Shown here one piece after another: positions 1-8,626 of a stretch of DNA of 40,972 bases. Under the pieces are notes generated by a model. It did no database searches. It saw nothing but the letters and a program-made list of their open reading frames with translations, and was not told the DNA's origin. This DNA is from Eubacteriales bacterium (GTDB lineage Bacteria > Bacillota > Clostridia > Oscillospirales > CAG-272). The stretch is taken from contig JBJDZN010000082.1 in assembly GCA_051868045.1 (NCBI GenBank), forward strand, positions 1 through 40,972, given 5' to 3'. Numbering within the stretch: position 1 is the stretch's first letter; each line of letters opens with the position of its first letter. The translations under genes and the position numbers were made by a program.

Positions 1-12
1 GAGGATAAAGAA

Positions 13-990
13 ATGTTTACCAAGAGTTTATTCAAGATGGGACTGGTGAGGAAGACGGCGGCGGCACTGCTGGCATTGACCTGCTGTGTGGGATGTCTTG
101 TGGGCTGTGACAACGGCAAGACACCGGACAAGGGCGAAGACAGCAATCAGACCACGACGCAGCAGGAGGGAACAGGCGATCCGAACGGTGGGACAGAGAA
201 TCCGAACGGTGGGACAGAGAATCCGGACGGCGGGACAGAGGAAAAGTATTATGTTCCGTCTGTTCTATCAGTGACAGCCGGCGGCGAAACACAAGCATTC
301 GAAGTCAAATGGAAAGACAACAGCATGGAGTTTTGTTTCGAAGATAAAGTGGGTGTTTCTGTTGCATTTGACGGCAATGGAAATCAGACTGAACAAATCT
401 TTTATAATGAGGACGGCAGTGTTTACTCACGAAAAGAATTCAAATATGATGATAACGGAAATCAGACGGAAGAGATTGATTATAACTCGGAAGGCAGTGT
501 TTCCCGGCGTTATGAATACAAGTATGACCAAAGCGGCAATCTGACGGAAGAGATTTACTATGATGCGGACGGCAGTATTTCTTACCGTTTGGAATGCAAG
601 TACGACGACAGCGGAAATCTGACGGAAGAGACATGTTATACTTCAAGCGGCAACGTTGCTTACTATTATCGTTACGAGTACGACAGTAACGGTAACCGGA
701 TGCGTGCGGTGCATGACTTCTACTTATATGAAGGTGATTCCACCAAATACTATGAGTACAAGTATGATGATAATGGCAATCTGACGGAAGAGATTGAATA
801 CAACTCGGACGGCAGTGTTTTTTACCGTTATGAATACAAGTATGACCAAAACGGTAACCGGATGGGTACGATCTGGTATGGAGAAGACGGAAGTGTTGTT
901 ATGGAATACATGTACAGTCAATACATCGAAGGAACAAAGGCGCAGCAACAATTTTTCAAGGATTTTGATTTTTTGAAACTTGACGCATAA
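13..990 (+). CDS. Lipoprotein with about 7 YD/RHS-like 26-aa repeats (paralog 1)
   Basis: GAGGA upstream of ATG, signal peptide ending in LVGC lipobox, acidic linker, repeats of EYKYDxxGNxTEExxYxxDGSV. Confidence 0.85.
   Translation: MFTKSLFKMGLVRKTAAALLALTCCVGCLVGCDNGKTPDKGEDSNQTTTQQEGTGDPNGGTENPNGGTENPDGGTEEKYYVPSVLSVTAGGETQAFEVKWKDNSMEFCFEDKVGVSVAFDGNGNQTEQIFYNEDGSVYSRKEFKYDDNGNQTEEIDYNSEGSVSRRYEYKYDQSGNLTEEIYYDADGSISYRLECKYDDSGNLTEETCYTSSGNVAYYYRYEYDSNGNRMRAVHDFYLYEGDSTKYYEYKYDDNGNLTEEIEYNSDGSVFYRYEYKYDQNGNRMGTIWYGEDGSVVMEYMYSQYIEGTKAQQQFFKDFDFLKLDA
178..240 (+). repeat. 3 x 21-bp tandem repeat encoding (D/N)P(N/D)GGTE linker
   Basis: gatccgaacggtgggacagag / aatccgaacggtgggacagag / aatccggacggcgggacagag; paralogs 2 and 3 have one copy. 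Confidence 0.95.
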
Positions 991-1105
991 TCATCATATA
1001 ACCGAATAATCAAGCCCCCTAACCAAAAGCAAAACTTCTTGCTTATGGTTGGGGGTATGTGTTCTTTGATCGGAAAGTTTTGAAAAGTTTTCAGATAAAT
1101 CCGAT

Positions 1106-1138
1106 ACTGCCGCAAATGCAATCAGCGTTTGCGGCAGT
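1106..1138. repeat. 14-bp stem hairpin, copy 1 of cassette boundary element
   Basis: actgccgcaaatgc-aatca-gcgtttgcggcagt; near-identical copies at 2150-2182 and 3273-3305. Confidence 0.9.
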
Positions 1139-1179
1139 TGGCTTATTGCAAAAAAATATGTATTGTTTCGTTTTTTCTC

Positions 1180-1208
1180 TTGACAATCCGAAATAATTCG
1201 TGTATAAT
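1180..1208 (+). promoter_or_regulatory. sigmaA promoter of lipoprotein 2
   Basis: TTGACA-17bp-TATAAT. Confidence 0.85.
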
Positions 1209-1246
1209 ATAACAACACTATTTTATGACGAAAGAAGGACAGAACG

Positions 1247-2134
1247 ATGAAAAAATGCGGCAAACTTTTCACACTTTTGCTGGCGGGGTGTGTTCTTTTC
1301 GGTTCGCTGATTGCTTGCGGCGGATCGGATTCACCCTCCGATGAAGACAGCGGCAGCAAAAAGACCACGACCCGGCAGGAGGGAACAGGCGATCCGAACG
1401 GTGGGACGGAGAAAAAGTATTATGTTCCGGCTAAGCTATCAATGACATCCGACGGTGAAACATTAACAGCCGAGCTCAAATGGCAGGAAAACAGTGTGGA
1501 CGGCTATGAGGATGGTGTATTGTCTTATCACACGGAATTTGATAACAACGGTAATCCGACGGAAGAGATTTACTATGACTCGGACGGAAGTGTTTACATG
1601 CGTTATGAATACAAGTACGACCAAAGCGGCAATATGACGGAAATGGCTCGATATGCCTCGGATGGAAGTGTTTCCTCGCGTTTGGAATATAAGTATGACC
1701 AAAGCGGCAATATGACGGAAATGATTTCCTATGACGCGGACGGAAGTGTTTCCTGGCGTTATGAATACAAGTACGATCAAAACGGCAAGCAAACGGAAGA
1801 GATTGAATATGATTCGGACGGAAGTGTTTTCTGGCGTACTGAATACAAGTATGACCAAAACGGCAATCAGACGGAAGAGATTGAATATGACTCGGACGGA
1901 AGTGTGTCCGGCCGTACTGAATACAAATATGACCAAAACGGCAATCAAACGGAAGAGATTTACTATGACTCGGACGGAAGTGTGTCCGACCGTATGGAAT
2001 ACAAATATGACGACAACGGTAATATGATTGAACAAGCATATTACGATTCAGACGGCGAAATCATGGGAAAATATACGATCGATCAATGGATCGAGGCAAC
2101 AGAGGCACAGTATAAATCCTACTTAAGACAGTGA
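1247..2134 (+). CDS. Lipoprotein with about 7 YD/RHS-like 26-aa repeats (paralog 2)
   Basis: RBS GAAAGAAGGA, lipobox LIAC, 78-bp tandem repeats. Confidence 0.9.
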   Translation: MKKCGKLFTLLLAGCVLFGSLIACGGSDSPSDEDSGSKKTTTRQEGTGDPNGGTEKKYYVPAKLSMTSDGETLTAELKWQENSVDGYEDGVLSYHTEFDNNGNPTEEIYYDSDGSVYMRYEYKYDQSGNMTEMARYASDGSVSSRLEYKYDQSGNMTEMISYDADGSVSWRYEYKYDQNGKQTEEIEYDSDGSVFWRTEYKYDQNGNQTEEIEYDSDGSVSGRTEYKYDQNGNQTEEIYYDSDGSVSDRMEYKYDDNGNMIEQAYYDSDGEIMGKYTIDQWIEATEAQYKSYLRQ

Positions 2135-2149
2135 ATGAAATACCCCGAT

Positions 2150-2182
2150 ACTGCCGCAAACGCAAACAGCGTTTGCGGCAGT
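2150..2182. repeat. 14-bp stem hairpin, copy 2
   Basis: actgccgcaaacgc-aaaca-gcgtttgcggcagt, perfect stem. Confidence 0.9.
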
Positions 2183-2225
2183 TGACTTTTTGTAAAAAAA
2201 CACGGCGATATTCCGTTTTTTTTCC

Positions 2226-2254
2226 TTGACAATCCGTAAAAATTCGTGTATAAT
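2226..2254 (+). promoter_or_regulatory. sigmaA promoter of lipoprotein 3
   Basis: TTGACA-17bp-TATAAT. Confidence 0.85.
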
Positions 2255-2293
2255 TAAAAAAACACTATTTCATGACGAAAGAAGGACAGAACG

Positions 2294-3253
2294 ATGAAAA
2301 AATGCGGCAAATTTTTCACACTTCTGCTGGCGGGGTGTGTTCTTTTCGGTGCGCTGACCGCTTGCGGCGGATCGGATTCACCCTCCGATGAAGACAGCGG
2401 CAACAAAAAGACCACGACCCGGCAGGAGGGAACAGGCGATCCGAACGGTGGGACGGAGAAAAAGTATTATGTTCCGTCTATGACATCAAATACATTCGAC
2501 GGCGAAACAGTAACATGCGAGCGCAAATGGCAGGAAAACAGTGTGGACGGCTATGAGGATGGTGTACTGTCTTTTCACAAGGAATTTGATAACAACGGCA
2601 ATCGGACGGAAGAGATTTACTATGATTCGGACGGAAGTGTTTCCTCTCGTACCGAATACAAGTATGACCAAAGCGGCAATCTGACGGAAGAGATTCGATA
2701 TTATTACGGAAGTGTTTACTGGCATTGTGAATACAAGTACGACCAAAACGGCAATCGGACGGAACAGATTGAATATGACTTTGACGGAAGTGTTTCCACC
2801 CGTACCGAATACAAGTATGACCAAAGCGGCAATCTGACGGAAGAAATTGCCTATGACTCGGACGGAAGTGTTTACAGTCGTTATGAATACAAATATGACC
2901 AAAGCGGCAATCTGACGGAAGAGATTGACTATGATTCGGACGGCAGTGTTTACAGTCGTTATGAATACAAGTATGACCAAAGCGGCAATCTGACGGAAAT
3001 GATTTCCTATGACGCAGACGGAAGTGTTTCATGGCGTTTGGAATACAATTATGACCAAAACGGCAATCGGACGGAACAGATTGAATATGATTCGGGCGGA
3101 AGTGTTCTCGTGCGTATGGAATATAAGTATGACGACAATGGCAATATGACGGAATATACATATTATGCTTCAGATGGCGAAATATTGGCAAAATATGCGA
3201 CCGATCAATGGGTCGAGGCAACAGAGGCACAGTATAAATTCTACTTTGAGTGA
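2294..3253 (+). CDS. Lipoprotein with about 8 YD/RHS-like 26-aa repeats (paralog 3)
   Basis: N-terminus nearly identical to paralog 2, lipobox LTAC, 78-bp repeats. Confidence 0.9.
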   Translation: MKKCGKFFTLLLAGCVLFGALTACGGSDSPSDEDSGNKKTTTRQEGTGDPNGGTEKKYYVPSMTSNTFDGETVTCERKWQENSVDGYEDGVLSFHKEFDNNGNRTEEIYYDSDGSVSSRTEYKYDQSGNLTEEIRYYYGSVYWHCEYKYDQNGNRTEQIEYDFDGSVSTRTEYKYDQSGNLTEEIAYDSDGSVYSRYEYKYDQSGNLTEEIDYDSDGSVYSRYEYKYDQSGNLTEMISYDADGSVSWRLEYNYDQNGNRTEQIEYDSGGSVLVRMEYKYDDNGNMTEYTYYASDGEILAKYATDQWVEATEAQYKFYFE

Positions 3254-3272
3254 ATGAATTAAATACACCAAT

Positions 3273-3305
3273 ACTGCCGCAAATGCAATCAGCGTTTGCG
3301 GCAGT
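3273..3305. repeat. 14-bp stem hairpin, copy 3
   Basis: Identical to copy 1. Confidence 0.9.
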
Positions 3306-3351
3306 TGGCTTATTGTTTCATAAAAAACACGGCGATATTCCATTTTCCCTC

Positions 3352-3380
3352 TTGACAATCCGTAAAAAATCGTGTATAAA
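3352..3380 (+). promoter_or_regulatory. sigmaA promoter of lipoprotein 4
   Basis: TTGACA-17bp-TATAAA. Confidence 0.75.
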
Positions 3381-3419
3381 TAAAATGACACGATTTCATG
3401 ACGAAAGAAGGACAGAACG

Positions 3420-5006
3420 ATGAAAAAATGCGGCAAACTTTTCACACTTTTGCTGGCGGGATGTGTTCTTTTCGGTGCGCTGACCGCTTGCGGCGGATCG
3501 GATGATGTACCCTCCGATGAAGACAGCGGCAGCACAAAGACAAGCAAAACCACGGTCAGCGAAAGCAATCCCGAGTCCGATCCCGATCCCGACCATACTC
3601 ACCTCTGGAGCGAGTGGGAGGTGACAAAGGAAGCCACCTGCGCCGAAGAGGGCATCTTATCCCGCAGTTGTGAATGCGGCGAAACCGAGACACAGCCCAT
3701 TGCAAAGCTTGAGCATACTGCGGGGGATTGGCAGACCGTAACTCCCGCAACCCCGGAGGCTCCCGGAAAAGAAGTTCTGCTTTGTTCGGTCTGCGGCGCC
3801 GAAATGGATTCACGGGAGATCCTCATGGATCTGGAAGGGTTCTATCATGCCGATTCTGCCGGCTATTACCGGGGGTTTGTATCTATCGGAATGAAGACCG
3901 ACTATGTGATTTTCAACACCAACAAAGAGGTTGTCTACACCTTTGCCACTGATGAGAATCCCGAGGTCTACGGCGGCGGCTACTTCCTTTCGAAGCAGGG
4001 CGACACAGAATATCTGAAGAAGGCAGACGGCACTGTGATCTGCTCCACCGAATCGCTGGGAATTTCGGGATTCGGTCTGAACGGAAACTATACCGCCAAT
4101 GTCTCCTTCCTGACCGACGGCTATGTCCTTGCCTATAAAGTCAACGAGACCTATGCAGGCGTGACCTATGAGATCGGTATTCTGGGTGTGGACGGCAAAT
4201 GGATCGTTCCGCTGTCCGCCGATCATCCCATCCTTTCCTCCGGTATGAATTGCTCCGCATCCGCCTTTCAGGAGAAACTGCGGTATATGGGAGAAGGCAT
4301 CCTGCTGGTTCCCGTTCAGATAAACGGGTACTCCTATGATTATGTGCTTTACAGCATCGGGGACAATGAGGTCTGTCGGTTTACCGTCGACAGCTATGCT
4401 CGCAATCTGGACTATATCATGACGGTCACAACGTTTGAGGACGGAGTCATCTACCGCACCTACGGCAGCACAATGTACGAGATTCACAAGGACGGAAAGG
4501 TGAAGCTCACCGATCTATTCCCGGACGGCACCTATAATTTCGGCATCTTCGGCTACCATGTGGATAAGGACGGCAGCTATATTGTCCTCAGCGGCAACGG
4601 CTGGAATATGGAGCTGCGCCGAAACGGTACTCTGATCAAGTCCTTTGAGGATGTGAACATCACCAACGCCGTCTATGTGGGCGATGTCTGGCTGATCTAT
4701 ATCGTGAATTCCGAAGGCACCCGCTATTACACCTATTTGAAGCCCGACGGCGAATTCCTCTTTGAACCCATCAAGACAGAAGCCTCCTACATCTGCACAG
4801 AGGAGGGCATCGGCATTTCCTATGATGACGATAAAGTCGGACAGGCGGACGGAATGAAGATCGTGATCGACAGGGAGGGCAAGGTTCTGTACCAAAGCGA
4901 ACAATTGACCACCGATCTCTCCATCAAAAACGGCATCATCTGTGAGACGGATGAGTCCGCTTTCGGTTCGGCTTCGTTTGAAAAATATACCCTTTTGACT
5001 CAATAA
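3420..5006 (+). CDS. Lipoprotein with the paralog 2/3 leader, two Cys/His repeats and a beta-rich (possibly WG-repeat-like) C-terminal region
   Basis: MKKCGKLFTLLLAGCVLFGALTACGGSD leader; HTHLWSEW..ATC..G..C.CG repeats; no YD repeats. Confidence 0.8.
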   Translation: MKKCGKLFTLLLAGCVLFGALTACGGSDDVPSDEDSGSTKTSKTTVSESNPESDPDPDHTHLWSEWEVTKEATCAEEGILSRSCECGETETQPIAKLEHTAGDWQTVTPATPEAPGKEVLLCSVCGAEMDSREILMDLEGFYHADSAGYYRGFVSIGMKTDYVIFNTNKEVVYTFATDENPEVYGGGYFLSKQGDTEYLKKADGTVICSTESLGISGFGLNGNYTANVSFLTDGYVLAYKVNETYAGVTYEIGILGVDGKWIVPLSADHPILSSGMNCSASAFQEKLRYMGEGILLVPVQINGYSYDYVLYSIGDNEVCRFTVDSYARNLDYIMTVTTFEDGVIYRTYGSTMYEIHKDGKVKLTDLFPDGTYNFGIFGYHVDKDGSYIVLSGNGWNMELRRNGTLIKSFEDVNITNAVYVGDVWLIYIVNSEGTRYYTYLKPDGEFLFEPIKTEASYICTEEGIGISYDDDKVGQADGMKIVIDREGKVLYQSEQLTTDLSIKNGIICETDESAFGSASFEKYTLLTQ

Positions 5007-5019
5007 GATAAAAAAACAG

Positions 5020-5074
5020 CGCATGGAGCGGTCTCAGATACAGATACCTGTCTGTATCGGGACCGCTCCATGCG
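5020..5074. terminator. Long hairpin between convergent genes
   Basis: cgcatggagcggtc...gaccgctccatgcg with inner gatacaga pairing; A-run on left. Confidence 0.7.
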
Positions 5075-5095
5075 GTTTCTGACATCGTTTGAAGT

Positions 5096-6859
5096 TTATA
5101 CAGCAAACTGGCTGTTCCAGAGGTTGGCATAGAAGCCGCCCTTTTCCAGCAGGGTCTTGTGATCGCCCTGCTCGATGATGTTTCCGTCCTTCATGACCAG
5201 AATGATGTCCGCTTCACGGATGGTGGACAGACGGTGAGCGACGATAAAGGAGGTGCGCCCCTTCATCAGTTCGGCGAAGGCATCCTGAATTTTCAGTTCG
5301 GTTCGGGTATCAATGGAGGAGGTGGCTTCATCCAGAATCAACATGGGCGGCAGGCAGAGCATGATTCGGGTGATGCAGAGCAGCTGTTTCTGCCCTTGAG
5401 ACAGGGAGCCGCCGTCCTCTCCGATCTGAGTCTGATAGCCCTTGGGAAGCCGCATGATAAAACTGTGGGAATGGGCTGCCTTGGCGGCGGCGATGACCTC
5501 TTCATCGGTGGCATCCGGTCTGCCCATGACAATGTTGTCCCGGATGGTGCCCGATTTCAGCCAGGTTTCCTGTAAAACCATGCCGTATCCCCGCCTCAGG
5601 CTGTTGCGGGTGCAGTTGCGGATGTCCACGCCGTCCACCGAGACAGAACCGGAATTCACATCGTAAAAACGCATGAGCAGATTGATCAAAGTGGTTTTGC
5701 CGCATCCGGTGGGACCGACGATTGCCACACGCTGACCGGGTTTAACCTGCAGATTGAAATCCTGTATCAGCTTTTTCTCGGGAACATAGGAGAAAGAAAC
5801 ATTATCCAGTTTCACAGCCCCCTTGGCATGAGTGAGGACAACGGCATCCTCTCCGTCGGGAACCTGGGAGGTCTCGTCAATCAGGTCAAAGAGTCGGGAT
5901 GCGCAGGCAAGGGCGTTCTGAAGTTCGGTAACCACGCCGGTGATCTCATTGAAGGGTTTCGTGTACTGGTTGGCATAGGCAAGCAGGGTTGACAGGGCAC
6001 CGACGGTGAACAGATCGGGATTCCCGGATTTTGCGGTGAAAACCACGGTCAGTGCGCCGACAAACGCCACTGCCGCATAGACTACGTTGTTTACGAATCG
6101 GGTGCAGGGATTGGTCAGGGAAGAAAAAAAGGTGGCACGCAGGGAATATTTTCCCAGCCGTTCGTTGATTTCGTCGAAGGTTTTCAGATTTTCGTTTTCG
6201 TGGGAGTATGCCTTGACCACCTTCAGACCGTTCATCATTTCTTCAATGAAGGCAGTCTGCTCCCCTCGGGTTTCGGACTGCTTTAAAAACATGGAATGGG
6301 TATGTTCGGCGATAAATTTCGCAACAAACAGGGAAAGCGGGGTCAGAATGACCACAATCAGGGCAATTTTCCAGTTCAGTGCCAGCATAAATCCCAGTGT
6401 TCCGAGGATGGTGACGATGCCGGTGAAAAATTGGGTAAAGCCCATGAGCAGACCGTCGGCAAACTGATCGGCATCGGCAATGACTCTGCTGACAATGTCA
6501 CCGGTGGAATGGCTGTCCAGATAGGACAGAGGCAGAGTCTGAATCTTGTAGAATGCCTGTTTGCGAATGTCACGGACCACGTTGTAGGTGATCTTGTTGT
6601 TGCAGACCGACATAATCCACTGGGAGAGGGCAGTCAGTCCTACGGTTATCGCCGCATGAACCAGAATGACCTTGATGGTATCAAAATCGACGGCATCCTT
6701 GCCTATGATGCAGTCGATGGCACGTCCGATCAGAATAGGGAAGTACAGGGTCAGTGCTACGGTGACAGCGGCGAGGAGAATGGAGATCAGCAGATAAATC
6801 CGATAGCTTTTCAGAGACTTCAGAACCTGCCGGATGACGGAGGGTTTGGTTTTAGCCAT
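5096..6859 (-). CDS. ABC exporter ATP-binding/permease subunit B
   Basis: TM domain, Walker A GPTGCGKT, signature LSQGQ, LDEATS; start moved to ATG 6859 after GAAAGGA. Confidence 0.93.
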   Translation of the reverse strand: MAKTKPSVIRQVLKSLKSYRIYLLISILLAAVTVALTLYFPILIGRAIDCIIGKDAVDFDTIKVILVHAAITVGLTALSQWIMSVCNNKITYNVVRDIRKQAFYKIQTLPLSYLDSHSTGDIVSRVIADADQFADGLLMGFTQFFTGIVTILGTLGFMLALNWKIALIVVILTPLSLFVAKFIAEHTHSMFLKQSETRGEQTAFIEEMMNGLKVVKAYSHENENLKTFDEINERLGKYSLRATFFSSLTNPCTRFVNNVVYAAVAFVGALTVVFTAKSGNPDLFTVGALSTLLAYANQYTKPFNEITGVVTELQNALACASRLFDLIDETSQVPDGEDAVVLTHAKGAVKLDNVSFSYVPEKKLIQDFNLQVKPGQRVAIVGPTGCGKTTLINLLMRFYDVNSGSVSVDGVDIRNCTRNSLRRGYGMVLQETWLKSGTIRDNIVMGRPDATDEEVIAAAKAAHSHSFIMRLPKGYQTQIGEDGGSLSQGQKQLLCITRIMLCLPPMLILDEATSSIDTRTELKIQDAFAELMKGRTSFIVAHRLSTIREADIILVMKDGNIIEQGDHKTLLEKGGFYANLWNSQFAV

Positions 6860-6889
6860 AATAGACAATCCTTTCTTGAGTCCCGGGAC

Positions 6890-8626
6890 TCAGCCTATGT
6901 CGGAATGGGTTTTCTGCTTCTCATCGGGATACTGAGAGTAGTAAATCTCCTGATAGACAGGGCAGGATTCCAGCAGTTGAGAATGGGTTCCGATTCCGAC
7001 GGTCTTTCCGTCATCCAAAACGATGATCCGGTCGGCGTGCATCAGGGTTGAGGTGCGCTGAGAAACCAGGAAAACGGTGGGTTTTTCGGGAATCGTGCGG
7101 ATTGCTTTGCGCAGTGCCGCATCGGTGGCATAGTCCAGGGCAGAGGCACTGTCGTCCAGTATCAGGATCTCGGGATGCCTGACCAGCGCACGGGCGATGG
7201 TCAGACGCTGTTTCTGACCGCCGGAGAAGTTCCGCCCCGCTTGGGCAACCTCTGCGTCCAGCCCTCCTTTGGCGAGGGCAACCTCTTTTGCCTGAGCCAA
7301 CTCCAGTGCCTGCCACATTTCGTCGTCAGTGGCATTCGGATTGCCCCATTCCAGATTGGAACGGATGGTCCCCTTGAACAGGGTCGCCTTCTGCATGACA
7401 ATGCCGACTTTTTGACGGAGGACTTCGGGATCGTACGCTTTGACATCCAGTCCGTCTATGATGACCTCGCCTTCGGTGGCATCATAGAAGTGGGAAAGCA
7501 GATGCACCAACGAGGACTTGCCCGATCCGGTGCCTCCGATGATTCCCACGGTTTCTCCCCGGTTTGCAGTGAAGGAGATTCCTTCCAATGCTTTTCCGCC
7601 GGCACCCCGGTAGGTCAGCCCCACATTCCGGAAGGTAATGAAGGGATCATCGGGATGTTCAACCGGTTCCAGCTTGTCGTCCTGCTCGTCGGTTTTCAGC
7701 ACATCCGCCACACGGTTTGCACAGGCAAGTGCCTTTGTGATGGTGATAATCAAATTGGCGAGCTTGATCAGTTCAACCAGAATCTGAGAAAGGTAGTTGT
7801 AGAGGGCAATGACGTCGCCCTGTTCCAGATCGCCGCTTTGCACCCGGGCACCGCCCACCTGAATCAGCCAGATGATGGCAAGATTGATCAGCACATAGGT
7901 CAAGGGGTTCATCAGTCCCGAAATCCAGCCGACCCGCCTCTGGGCACGGTTCAATTCGCCGTTTGCTTGGTCGAAACGCTTCTTTTCACTGTCCTCCTTG
8001 CAGAAAGCACGAAGGACACGGACACCGGTGAGATTCTCACGGGTTGTGGACAGGACTGTGTCCAGCCGATTCTGGGTCTTTTTGTAGAGGGGAATGGTGA
8101 TCAGAAGAATGCCGAAAACGACCACCGACAGGGCGGGAATGGTGACGGCAAAGATCAGTGCAGACCTTACATCAATGGTAAATGCCATGATCATGGCACC
8201 GAATACGATAAAGGGGGAGCGCAGAAACAGTCGCAGGGTCATATTCACTCCGGACTGCACCTGATTGACGTCGCTGGTCATACGGGTGATCAAGGTGGAG
8301 GAGCCTATTCGGTCCATAGCGGAGAAGGTAAAGGATTGAATCTTGTCAAACAGGGCATGACGAACCTTTGTACCGAATCCGATGGCAGCCTTGGCAGAAA
8401 AATACTGGGCAGTTACCGAAAAACCGAGTCCGATCAGCCCCAGAGCCAGCAGAATCAGGCAACGGGTGACGATGAAGCCGGTGTCCTGATTTTTGATGCC
8501 CACGTTGACGATGGCGGCAACGACAAGAGGCACGAACAGTTCAAAGGTCGCTTCCAGCAGCTTGAACAGCGGTCCCAAAACCGTTTCTTTTTTGTAATCC
8601 TTCAGATATTTCAGGAGATCTTTCAT
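6890..8626 (-). CDS. ABC exporter ATP-binding/permease subunit A (degenerate site)
   Basis: GGTGSGKS, FSGGQ, LDDSAS (D for catalytic E), Q in H-switch; typical heterodimeric exporter. Confidence 0.93.
   Translation of the reverse strand: MKDLLKYLKDYKKETVLGPLFKLLEATFELFVPLVVAAIVNVGIKNQDTGFIVTRCLILLALGLIGLGFSVTAQYFSAKAAIGFGTKVRHALFDKIQSFTFSAMDRIGSSTLITRMTSDVNQVQSGVNMTLRLFLRSPFIVFGAMIMAFTIDVRSALIFAVTIPALSVVVFGILLITIPLYKKTQNRLDTVLSTTRENLTGVRVLRAFCKEDSEKKRFDQANGELNRAQRRVGWISGLMNPLTYVLINLAIIWLIQVGGARVQSGDLEQGDVIALYNYLSQILVELIKLANLIITITKALACANRVADVLKTDEQDDKLEPVEHPDDPFITFRNVGLTYRGAGGKALEGISFTANRGETVGIIGGTGSGKSSLVHLLSHFYDATEGEVIIDGLDVKAYDPEVLRQKVGIVMQKATLFKGTIRSNLEWGNPNATDDEMWQALELAQAKEVALAKGGLDAEVAQAGRNFSGGQKQRLTIARALVRHPEILILDDSASALDYATDAALRKAIRTIPEKPTVFLVSQRTSTLMHADRIIVLDDGKTVGIGTHSQLLESCPVYQEIYYSQYPDEKQKTHSDIG

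Follow-up and report, generated by a model that had tools for sequence, protein, structure and literature searches.

The tyrosine-aspartate (YD) hairpin repeat is best known from the shells of Rhs, TcB-TcC and teneurin proteins (PF05593, TIGR01643). In Rhs cores, the YD motif is described as marking the transition from a strand to a sharp turn (bioRxiv 10.1101/2024.02.26.582050), and the teneurin shell is assigned 78 strands (PMC5851990). Rhs toxins combine a core, a PVxxxxGE/DPxG[LWF] cleavage motif and a toxin domain, and Rhs and Tc proteins rely on the type VI secretion system or on Tc delivery. Another hairpin repeat is DUF2963, whose units of about 26 residues occur 1-24 times per protein and vary in number and sequence (PMC12633904). 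The phytoplasma 'Scorpion' proteins are presented there as secreted effectors of wall-less Mollicutes that often have an N-terminal helical tail and are often plasmid-linked (PMC12633904). Hairpin sheets have also been solved for Bacteroidales DUF3836 proteins (4r8o, BVU_1206; 4r03, BDI_3222; 3msw, BF3112) and for the 'porin-like' 4ghb (BACUNI_01323), a group of 100-260 residues with 3-4 hairpins.

We examined a 40,972-nucleotide stretch of DNA from an Eubacteriales bacterium of the CAG-272 lineage (hereafter, the window), which corresponds to bases 1-40,972 of contig JBJDZN010000082.1 in a 1.86-Mb, 93% complete assembly (GCA_051868045.1). The list of open reading frames (ORFs) places four genes, A to D, on the plus strand at its start, and the first three encode putative lipoproteins carrying arrays of a 78-bp (26-residue) unit. 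We interpret A, B and C, with a probability of about 0.6, as lipid-anchored, toxin-less RHS/YD hairpin arrays shaped by ordinary structural-repeat evolution. A scan of species-representative genomes provided two related loci for comparison, designated L030 and L031. The genes and arrays are as follows.

13..990, plus strand: gene A, a 325-residue predicted lipoprotein with lipobox LVGC (Cys32), identified from the ORF list, profiles and a motif scan; its parts are, in order, an acidic, Thr-rich linker, a beta cap, seven YD-type units (358-909) and a short C-terminal tail.
179..240, plus strand: three copies of a 21-bp repeat encoding PNGGTEN in the linker of A (Tandem Repeats Finder, TRF).
358..909, plus strand: repeat array of A, with units starting at 358, 436, 514, 592, 670 (irregular, 28 residues), 754 and 832.
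1247..2134, plus strand: gene B, a 295-residue predicted lipoprotein with seven units (1529-2074) and a C-terminal helix motif, WIEATEAQYK.
2294..3253, plus strand: gene C, a 319-residue predicted lipoprotein with eight units (2576-3196) and a C-terminal helix.

Profile searches placed the three proteins among known hairpin repeats. RHS_repeat (PF05593) scored 51.9, 51.3 and 53.8 bits (cut-off 22), DUF2963 (PF11178) 32.9, 47.6 and 50.8 bits (cut-off 22.6) and the NCBIfam profile YD_repeat_2x (TIGR01643) 32.2, 38.6 and 64.5 bits (cut-off 15.8); the corresponding E-values for A were 8.8e-14, 4.1e-8 and 1e-7. The 78-bp period, with one hairpin per unit in the models described below, also fits the DUF2963 (Scorpion) motif. 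DUF3836 (PF12930) scored 23.0 bits in B and 17.3 in C, below its cut-off of 25, and did not match A. Pfam and NCBIfam profiles detected no Rhs-associated core and no toxin domain in A, B or C, and the autoproteolysis motifs PVxxxxGE and DPxG[LWF], as defined in bioRxiv 10.1101/2024.02.26.582050, were absent from the three proteins and their orthologs. This is as the original prediction, made by a model from the letters of this DNA, had stated: there is neither an Rhs core nor a toxin tail. Protein C matched 20,641 cluster representatives at E<=1e-3 in an exhaustive profile-free search (6,881 at <=1e-10 and 304 at <=1e-30), spanning 242 to 5,104 residues. The repeat class is therefore very large, and A, B and C are members of it. 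Teneurin-3 YD shells also match by sequence (E 1e-6). The best identity in a word-indexed homolog search was 38-44%, and A found matches at E<=1e-10 in 16 of 200 other genomes of the taxonomic family and in neither of two genomes of the genus. Two loci matched A at 28% identity among metagenome contigs and were not used. A limited literature search turned up no report of short lipoproteins with YD repeats in Clostridia.

The repeat units are highly regular. TRF reported period-78 arrays at 436-663, 1547-2024 (6.1 copies, 82% matches) and 2596-3154 (7.2 copies, 80%), and scanning the translations of the three genes for the motif gave 23 matches, one spurious and 22 in register (seven in A, seven in B and eight in C). 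The first unit begins at 358 and the last ends at 3196, in agreement with the predicted array of about 22 units of 78 bp at 360-3200. We aligned 21 of the 22, excluding the irregular 28-residue unit at 670-753; unit 2 of C is one codon short. The alignment displays the scaffold E-Y-K-Y-D-x-x-G-N-x-T-E-x-I-x-Y-D-S-D-G-S-V-x-x-R-x, in which D5, G8, Y16 and G20 are invariant (21/21 each) and most other scaffold positions hold in 16-20 of the 21 units (E1 18, Y2 16, K3 17, Y4 18, N9 20, T11 19, E12 20, D19 17, S21 18, V22 18 and R25 16), as anticipated. Entropy was highest at position 24 (3.04 bits, 10 residue types) and position 15 (2.82 bits, 9 types), followed by positions 23 (2.29), 10 (2.14), 26 (2.11), 17 (1.78) and 13 (1.74); the six sites named in advance as variable (10, 13, 15, 23, 24 and 26) are thus where the variation concentrates. 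The claim that the scaffold is often conserved to the codon holds for E12 (GAA 20/20), E13 (GAG 11/12), S21 (AGT 18/18), T11 (ACG 18/19), N9 (AAT 19/20) and R25 (CGT 15/16) but not for G20 (GGA 13, GGC 8) or D5 (GAC 16, GAT 5). In 11 other ORFs of the window, GAA and GAG were used at 51:49, and AGT and ACG made up 11% of Ser and 18% of Thr codons, respectively. Thus, the codon identity reflects shared descent or conversion rather than codon bias. Substitutions in the variable codons fall at every one of the three bases and involve all base types.

Each array is preceded by a candidate export signal. We scored as a lipobox an N-terminal signal peptide ending in [LVI][ASTVI][GAS]C, by motif match only, and found LVGC at residues 29-32 of A, and LAGC at 12-15 and L[IT]AC at 21-24 of both B and C; gene D has lipobox matches at the same two places. 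Judged by these motifs, the products of all four genes are probably lipidated at the lipobox Cys, consistent with the lipoprotein assignment predicted for the three paralogs. The PNGGTEN repeat in the linker of A has one copy fewer in the L030 ortholog (a 7-residue gap) and two fewer in that of L031 (14 residues), which indicates that tether length changes with the copy number of the 21-bp repeat. Proteins A, B and C stop 18-26 residues past their last unit, and their own genome carries no copies beyond these three.

We modeled C and B2, the nine-unit L030 ortholog of B, to place the units on a fold. The AlphaFold2 model of C, built from a 62-row alignment, has a mean predicted local distance difference test score (pLDDT) of 89.1 and a predicted template modeling score of 0.76; it shows a signal helix (residues 5-21), a disordered linker (pLDDT <50), 20 strands and a C-terminal helix. 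The B2 model (pLDDT 84.8) has 22 strands, with a weak stretch in which blocks of residues 141-170 average 56-67 and residues 141-145 fall below 50. In both models, the unit comprises a seven-residue strand (10-16), a five-residue turn (17-21), a nine-residue strand running from position 22 to position 4 of the next unit, and a five-residue turn (5-9). The YD pairs therefore sit at the strand-to-turn transition, in agreement with the description of Rhs cores (bioRxiv 10.1101/2024.02.26.582050). Foldseek ranked Rhs, Tc and teneurin shells highest (E 1e-12 to 1e-8; RhsA, Tse15, a VgrG-linked Rhs, TcdB2-TccC3 and teneurins among them), followed by engineered OspA. In a search independent of Foldseek, C matched 19-strand barrels (Z 11.6-11.9, root-mean-square deviation (rmsd) 4.0-4.3 over 225-234 residues) and Rhs/Tc shells (Z 10.6-11.3), two kinds of match that suggest a ring-like curl. 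B2 was matched best by the Rhs core of Salmonella bongori, in its C-terminal portion (8qjb_A; Z 14.7, with an rmsd of 3.2 over 233 residues). The DUF3836 crystal structures 4r8o (Z 9.6, rmsd 2.0 over 83 residues), 3msw (Z 9.5-10.4) and 4r03 (Z 9.2) and the porin-like 4ghb (Z 8.5) also matched. We read the modeled sheet as curling into approximately one turn of an Rhs-type spiral; a difference of seven versus nine units between orthologs would fit an open spiral better than a closed barrel. The 20 (C) and 22 (B2) strands do not amount to a closed shell of many tens of strands, such as the 78 given for teneurin (PMC5851990).

Strand parity, taken from the DSSP strings of the two models, assigned residues to faces. 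Residues 16:22 and 4:10 are the outermost bridged pairs in every unit, which sets same-parity residues on one face. On this basis, Y2, Y4, E12, I14, Y16 and V22 would share one face with variable positions 10, 24 and 26, and E1, K3, T11 and R25 the other with variable positions 13, 15 and 23. Positions 15, 23 and 24 also gather, with the moderately variable 17 and 18, near the DSDGS rim. As predicted, 13 lies on the same face as 15, and 24 on the same face as 26, which would be true of any residues two apart, but in the models the two pairs point to opposite faces; the split of the variable positions (10/24/26 versus 13/15/23) leaves no single diversified face.

Set beside the described systems, A, B and C share by profile the hairpin repeat of the Rhs, TcB-TcC and teneurin shells, and the B2 model can be overlaid on the C-terminal portion of an Rhs core, but 7-8 units provide only about 20 strands, against the 78 reported for teneurin (PMC5851990). 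Because the sheet would make at most one turn, it should be unable to enclose a cargo. The core, cleavage motif and toxin domain of Rhs toxins are all missing, and where Rhs and Tc proteins use type VI secretion or Tc delivery, the signal peptides of A, B and C point to lipoprotein export. With the Scorpion effectors, as described in PMC12633904, they share the hairpin of about 26 residues and a repeat number and sequence that differ between paralogs; unlike them, A, B and C are putative lipoproteins encoded in a Clostridia-type genome, and they have a beta cap and a C-terminal helix. The short sheets of the DUF3836 proteins and of 4ghb resemble A, B and C in local hairpin geometry, yet they have 3-4 hairpins rather than 7-8 units; judging by the models, DUF3836 is a distant structural relative and not a sequence-level family of A, B and C. 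Borrelia OspA is a lipid-anchored surface protein with a long exposed antiparallel sheet, as A, B and C are predicted to be, and its engineered chains are matched by Foldseek (E 6.5e-8 to 1.6e-7). With low TM scores (0.16-0.18), no YD repeat and no sequence relation, OspA can serve as an analogy only.

The locus is conserved, in part, in related genomes. L030 carries syntenic orthologs A2, B2, C2 and D2 followed by the same two ATP-binding cassette (ABC) exporter genes as the window, whereas L031, flanked by unrelated genes, carries an A ortholog (A3) together with X3, a gene whose A-type signal and linker are fused to a body of the B/C type. None of these neighborhoods hints at a partner or function. 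Amino acid identity to L030 is 265/318 for A, 277/295 for B (plus a 52-residue indel of two units, seven units in B versus nine in B2), 246/317 for C, which differs by many point changes, and 543/587 for the ABC exporter at 5096-6868. The four lipoprotein genes have synonymous distances (dS) to L030 of 0.13, 0.07, 0.23 and 0.16, compared with 0.48 and 0.63 for the two adjacent ABC exporter genes (blocks 13-5006 versus 5096-8626 of the window, and 1672-6795 versus 6868-10240 of L030), which suggests either that the two lineages exchanged the lipoprotein block more recently or that this block is unusually constrained. Public sequencing runs added fragments: only two, and no RNA dataset among those listed, contained 12-15% of the sampled words of window positions 1-3420, in short, fragmentary contigs, since short-read assemblies break within the arrays. 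Pieces from run X1 were near-identical to the window (4 differences in 430 bases of B and 1 in 205 of C), and run X2 held a relative at about 93% identity, with an A-type contig that jumps from position 501 to a B-like unit.

Units also appear to move within and between genes. Among 62 units from the three genomes, the nearest neighbor was the positional ortholog for 14 of the 21 window units and a non-orthologous unit for the other seven. The nearest pairs within the same genome included C_u4/C_u5 (0.94) and C_u6/B_u3 (0.92), with A_u3 nearest to C_u6 and B_u6 to B_u5; A_u2 and C_u2 were nearest to units of X3, the L031 gene of B/C type. Together with the two-unit indel in B, these non-orthologous neighbors demonstrate unequal exchange among units and paralogs, probably with gene conversion as well, and this would provide a neutral route to a homogenized scaffold. 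The center of A (units 2-4, 436-670) is strongly unlike A2 and A3 even at the scaffold, where the maximum likelihood (ML) ratio of non-synonymous to synonymous rates (omega) is 1.0, and the nearest units to A units 2 and 3 are of the B/C type, a pattern that resembles conversion from a paralog.

Rates of change were estimated among window units and against L030. For the 21 window units, the Nei-Gojobori method gave a non-synonymous distance (dN) of 0.957 at the six variable positions against a dS of 0.817 at the scaffold, a ratio of 1.17 (column bootstrap 0.65-1.99). Because this method inflates synonymous counts where two-fold sites abound in the codons compared (the pS of single codons exceeded 1), we also fitted an ML codon model of the GY94 type in which one synonymous rate was shared, using a composite of all 210 pairs that the 21 units form; scaffold omega was 0.23. 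Nei-Gojobori ratios of 2.1 and 3.4 obtained on subsets of 'canonical' units were discarded as biased, the subsets having been chosen by scaffold likeness. Against L030, Nei-Gojobori omega at the variable sites was 1.50 with all units (bootstrap 0.96-2.34), 1.01 without A units 2-4 (0.59-1.67), 1.32 for C alone (0.72-2.51) and 0.26 for B alone, where 3.0 non-synonymous differences were estimated over 42 variable codons; scaffold omega was 0.33-0.44. The ML estimate of 2.54 for all units (p ~1e-4) is driven by A, where scaffold omega is 1.0, and falls to 1.37 without A units 2-4 (p=0.16); that of B is 0.57. At positions 15, 24 and 26, omega against L030 was 1.0-1.6, not different from 1 (p 0.12-1.0), and a value of 8 was rejected in all four L030 data sets (p 1.4e-7 to 0.004). 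The high ratio among paralogs does not, therefore, describe the present substitution regime.

The positions that vary in the window also vary across the repeat class. Among 120 homologs listed, the commonest [YFW]DxxG spacing was 26, and extraction by motif spacing yielded 104 units from 60 of them, or 101 after dropping P0002 and P0102. The four most variable positions in these 101 units were 23, 15, 24 and 26, and per-position entropy correlated between family and window units (Spearman 0.81). The variable positions are thus a generic property of the hairpin and not special to this locus.

Several observations weigh against ordinary repeat evolution and toward the idea, put forward in the original prediction, of a binding or antigenic surface diversified by positive selection, with 22 units in three paralogs as a small binder repertoire. 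Among window units, ML omega at the six positions was 3.2 (column bootstrap 1.6-10, with none of 200 resamples reaching 1 or less). Per-site values were at least 10 at positions 15 and 24 and 8 at 26, and lower at 23 (2.0), 10 (1.6), 13 and 18 (1.25 each) and other positions (<=1.0). This amounts to positive selection and not drift, provided that synonymous change in the scaffold measures neutral time fairly; the 210 pairs are, however, not independent, the six columns were picked for their variability (four are also named by the independent family ranking), and a scaffold homogenized by conversion would lower the neutral yardstick. The ML omega of C against its ortholog is 1.82 (p=0.07) and that of A units 2-4 is 6.8, a value that we would attribute to conversion solely from nearest-neighbor identities. 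Tyr, Trp and Ser are common at positions 15, 24 and 26, a composition often seen in binding surfaces, and the faces were assigned from DSSP strand parity in the models rather than from coordinates. The closest units also differ almost solely at variable codons (B5 and B6 differ by 1 scaffold base in 60, as against 5 bases in 3 of the 6 variable codons), although such pairs are selected by scaffold likeness, which biases the contrast. As the prediction had proposed to check, arrays do differ between related genomes: B has gained or lost units, the center of A is replaced and C has changed point by point. Yet the rate test it called for gave a divided answer, with omega well above 1 among paralogs by ML but 1.17 by Nei-Gojobori and no excess over 1 between orthologs, where omega of 8 is rejected. 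B retains its variable residues (omega 0.26-0.57), variable-site dN of A between L030 and L031 is 0.124 against a gene-wide dS of 0.227, and the low dS of the locus relative to the flanking exporters is unlike that of an arms-race locus. With the variable positions divided three and three between faces and shared family-wide, we regard a binder library as possible but unlikely. A more elaborate version, in which one-turn open Rhs rings act as lipid-tethered receptors after a post-duplication burst of positive selection at 15, 24 and 26 (and rim neighbors), then conservation, is the main rival to the ordinary account but strikes us as unlikely; each hairpin would then bring its own contact residues, half lining a Tyr/Glu-rich lumen and half the outer wall, and the three paralogs, with units gained, lost and swapped between species, would form a small, evolving repertoire of surface binders.

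Concerted evolution offers a different account of the same contrast and is a plausible one, though we place it short of even odds. Here, short conversion or duplication events would re-homogenize the scaffold but stop at, or fail to fix across, the variable codons, so that the scaffold understates unit age and variable-site omega is inflated. The seven window units with non-orthologous nearest neighbors, the in-register 52-residue indel between B and B2, a position-specific codon choice that genome codon usage does not explain, and a high paralog omega that fails to recur between orthologs are all consistent with it; a conversion tract, on the other hand, would be expected to copy the variable codons too, two-thirds of the units (14/21) still pair with their positional ortholog, and conversion is read here from unit identities. 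Programmed diversification, by a diversity-generating retroelement or by cassette switching that rewrites the variable codons, would explain discrete variable codons in a fixed frame, but it shares that pattern only. No reverse transcriptase (PF00078) was detected in the 93%-complete genome, control genomes being positive, and changes occur at all bases rather than at adenine-templated sites; these two results, with the largely unchanged variable residues of the B ortholog, make programmed mutagenesis very unlikely, and the intergenic alignment shows no invertible or silent-cassette structure. Overall, we consider such a mechanism exceedingly improbable. Hardly more credible is an immunity role, as a YwqK/MORN-like repeat protein that neutralizes a polymorphic toxin. 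It is hinted at by the automatic name of homolog P0012 ('antitoxin component YwqK') and by weak MORN_2 and Imm51 matches, all of which scored below their cut-offs (YwqK/MORN_2, PF07661, 10.8-14.5 bits versus 29.6; Imm51, 10.7 versus 29.8). Furthermore, A, B and C are predicted to be exported lipoproteins, and no toxin gene adjoins them in the window, L030 or L031.

The simplest reading compatible with all of these results is that of lipid-anchored arrays under ordinary structural-repeat evolution. A, B and C would be exported and lipid-anchored, and the mature part of each would be a short, toxin-less RHS/YD-type hairpin array. Each unit would form a single hairpin whose two turns are of the YDxxG type (Y4-D5-x-x-G8-N9 and Y16-D17-x-D19-G20). 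Conserved residues would build the turns and the alternating strand pattern, and stacked units would make one continuous antiparallel sheet of about one turn of an Rhs-type shell. A disordered, acidic Gly/Pro/Thr linker of some 30-60 residues would hold the curled YD sheet off the membrane and display it in the wall zone. The six changeable positions may be strand sites dispensable to the fold, three on each face. Units would have arisen by tandem duplication, with a scaffold under purifying selection (omega ~0.2-0.5) that is occasionally re-homogenized when units duplicate or when conversion occurs between units or paralogs. The free positions would be nearly saturated between old units and now change near-neutrally between species, being mostly kept in B. 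Ordinary repeat evolution would thereby account for the contrast between scaffold and variable codons.

Each gene would also have its own promoter and a following hairpin. The intergenic features, together with gene D, are listed here.

1106..1138, plus strand: terminator-like hairpin after A (ACTGCCGCAAA...TTTGCGGCAGT), read from the sequence and aligned with the other two copies; it opens a conserved intergenic cassette.
1180..1208, plus strand: putative promoter of B, sigma-70-type, TTGACA-17-TATAAT, 12/12 consensus (promoter scan).
2150..2182, plus strand: terminator-like hairpin after B, with 14 pairs (9 G-C).
2226..2254, plus strand: putative promoter of C, TTGACA-17-TATAAT, 12/12 consensus (promoter scan).
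3273..3305, plus strand: third copy of the terminator-like hairpin, after C (sequence reading and alignment).
3352..3380, plus strand: promoter-like site of D, TTGACA-17-TATAAA, read from the sequence and aligned with the two 12/12 promoters.
1098-1330, 2142-2377 and 3268-3503: cassette plus signal-peptide stretch.
3420..5006, plus strand: gene D, a 528-residue predicted lipoprotein with a Cys-rich body unrelated to A, B and C.

The promoter-like site of D was not listed by the scan because the scan requires T as the last base. The cassette of about 150 bases (hairpin, TTGACA-17-TATAAT/TATAAA promoter and 5' leader) is near-identical before B, C and D, and the near-identity extends into the first ~28 codons of these genes, which encode the signal peptide (MKKCGK..LTACGGSD). 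In L031, a B/C-type body instead follows an A-type signal and linker. On these sequences, export heads seem to have been recombined with different mature bodies. The spacers between the genes share 89-92% identity with those of L030. Gene D, which has the upstream cassette and signal peptide of B and C, is part of the locus but not of the repeat family. It adjoins C in L030 as well (494/528 residues identical, 94%) and matched no Pfam family; it has 10 Cys beyond residue 45 and a CxC...CxxC-like stretch at about residues 75-125, and its Atlas matches (0.79-0.83; WG-repeat and lipoprotein clusters, 0.80-0.83) are leads only. On the minus strand, ORFs of 187-250 residues cross the arrays of B (1463-2039) and C (2478-3230), with similar ones in L030. 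These antisense ORFs, themselves repetitive, are most simply a by-product of the stop-free repeat frame and not genes.

The sheet would, we infer, act at the cell surface in binding or in a structural role, with expression driven by a strong promoter of its own. Short, toxin-less hairpin proteins of the YD/DUF2963 type are extremely common (~20,600 representatives match C), yet neither the phytoplasma members, in their description (PMC12633904), nor the solved DUF3836 structures have a reported target or function. The locus is a natural experiment: three paralogs with separate consensus promoters, syntenic orthologs and visible unit gain and loss allow the contrast between paralog-level and ortholog-level rates to be measured in one place. 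It also carries a caution about method, as Nei-Gojobori and ML estimates can differ threefold when a codon set contains many two-fold sites. If the variable positions do not set specificity, hypervariable codons may arise from structural constraint and concerted evolution in any tandem repeat. If they do, gut-type Clostridia would carry on their surface a natural scaffold for repeat binders, and a receptor role, if true, would be the first function for the very large class of toxin-less YD-hairpin proteins.

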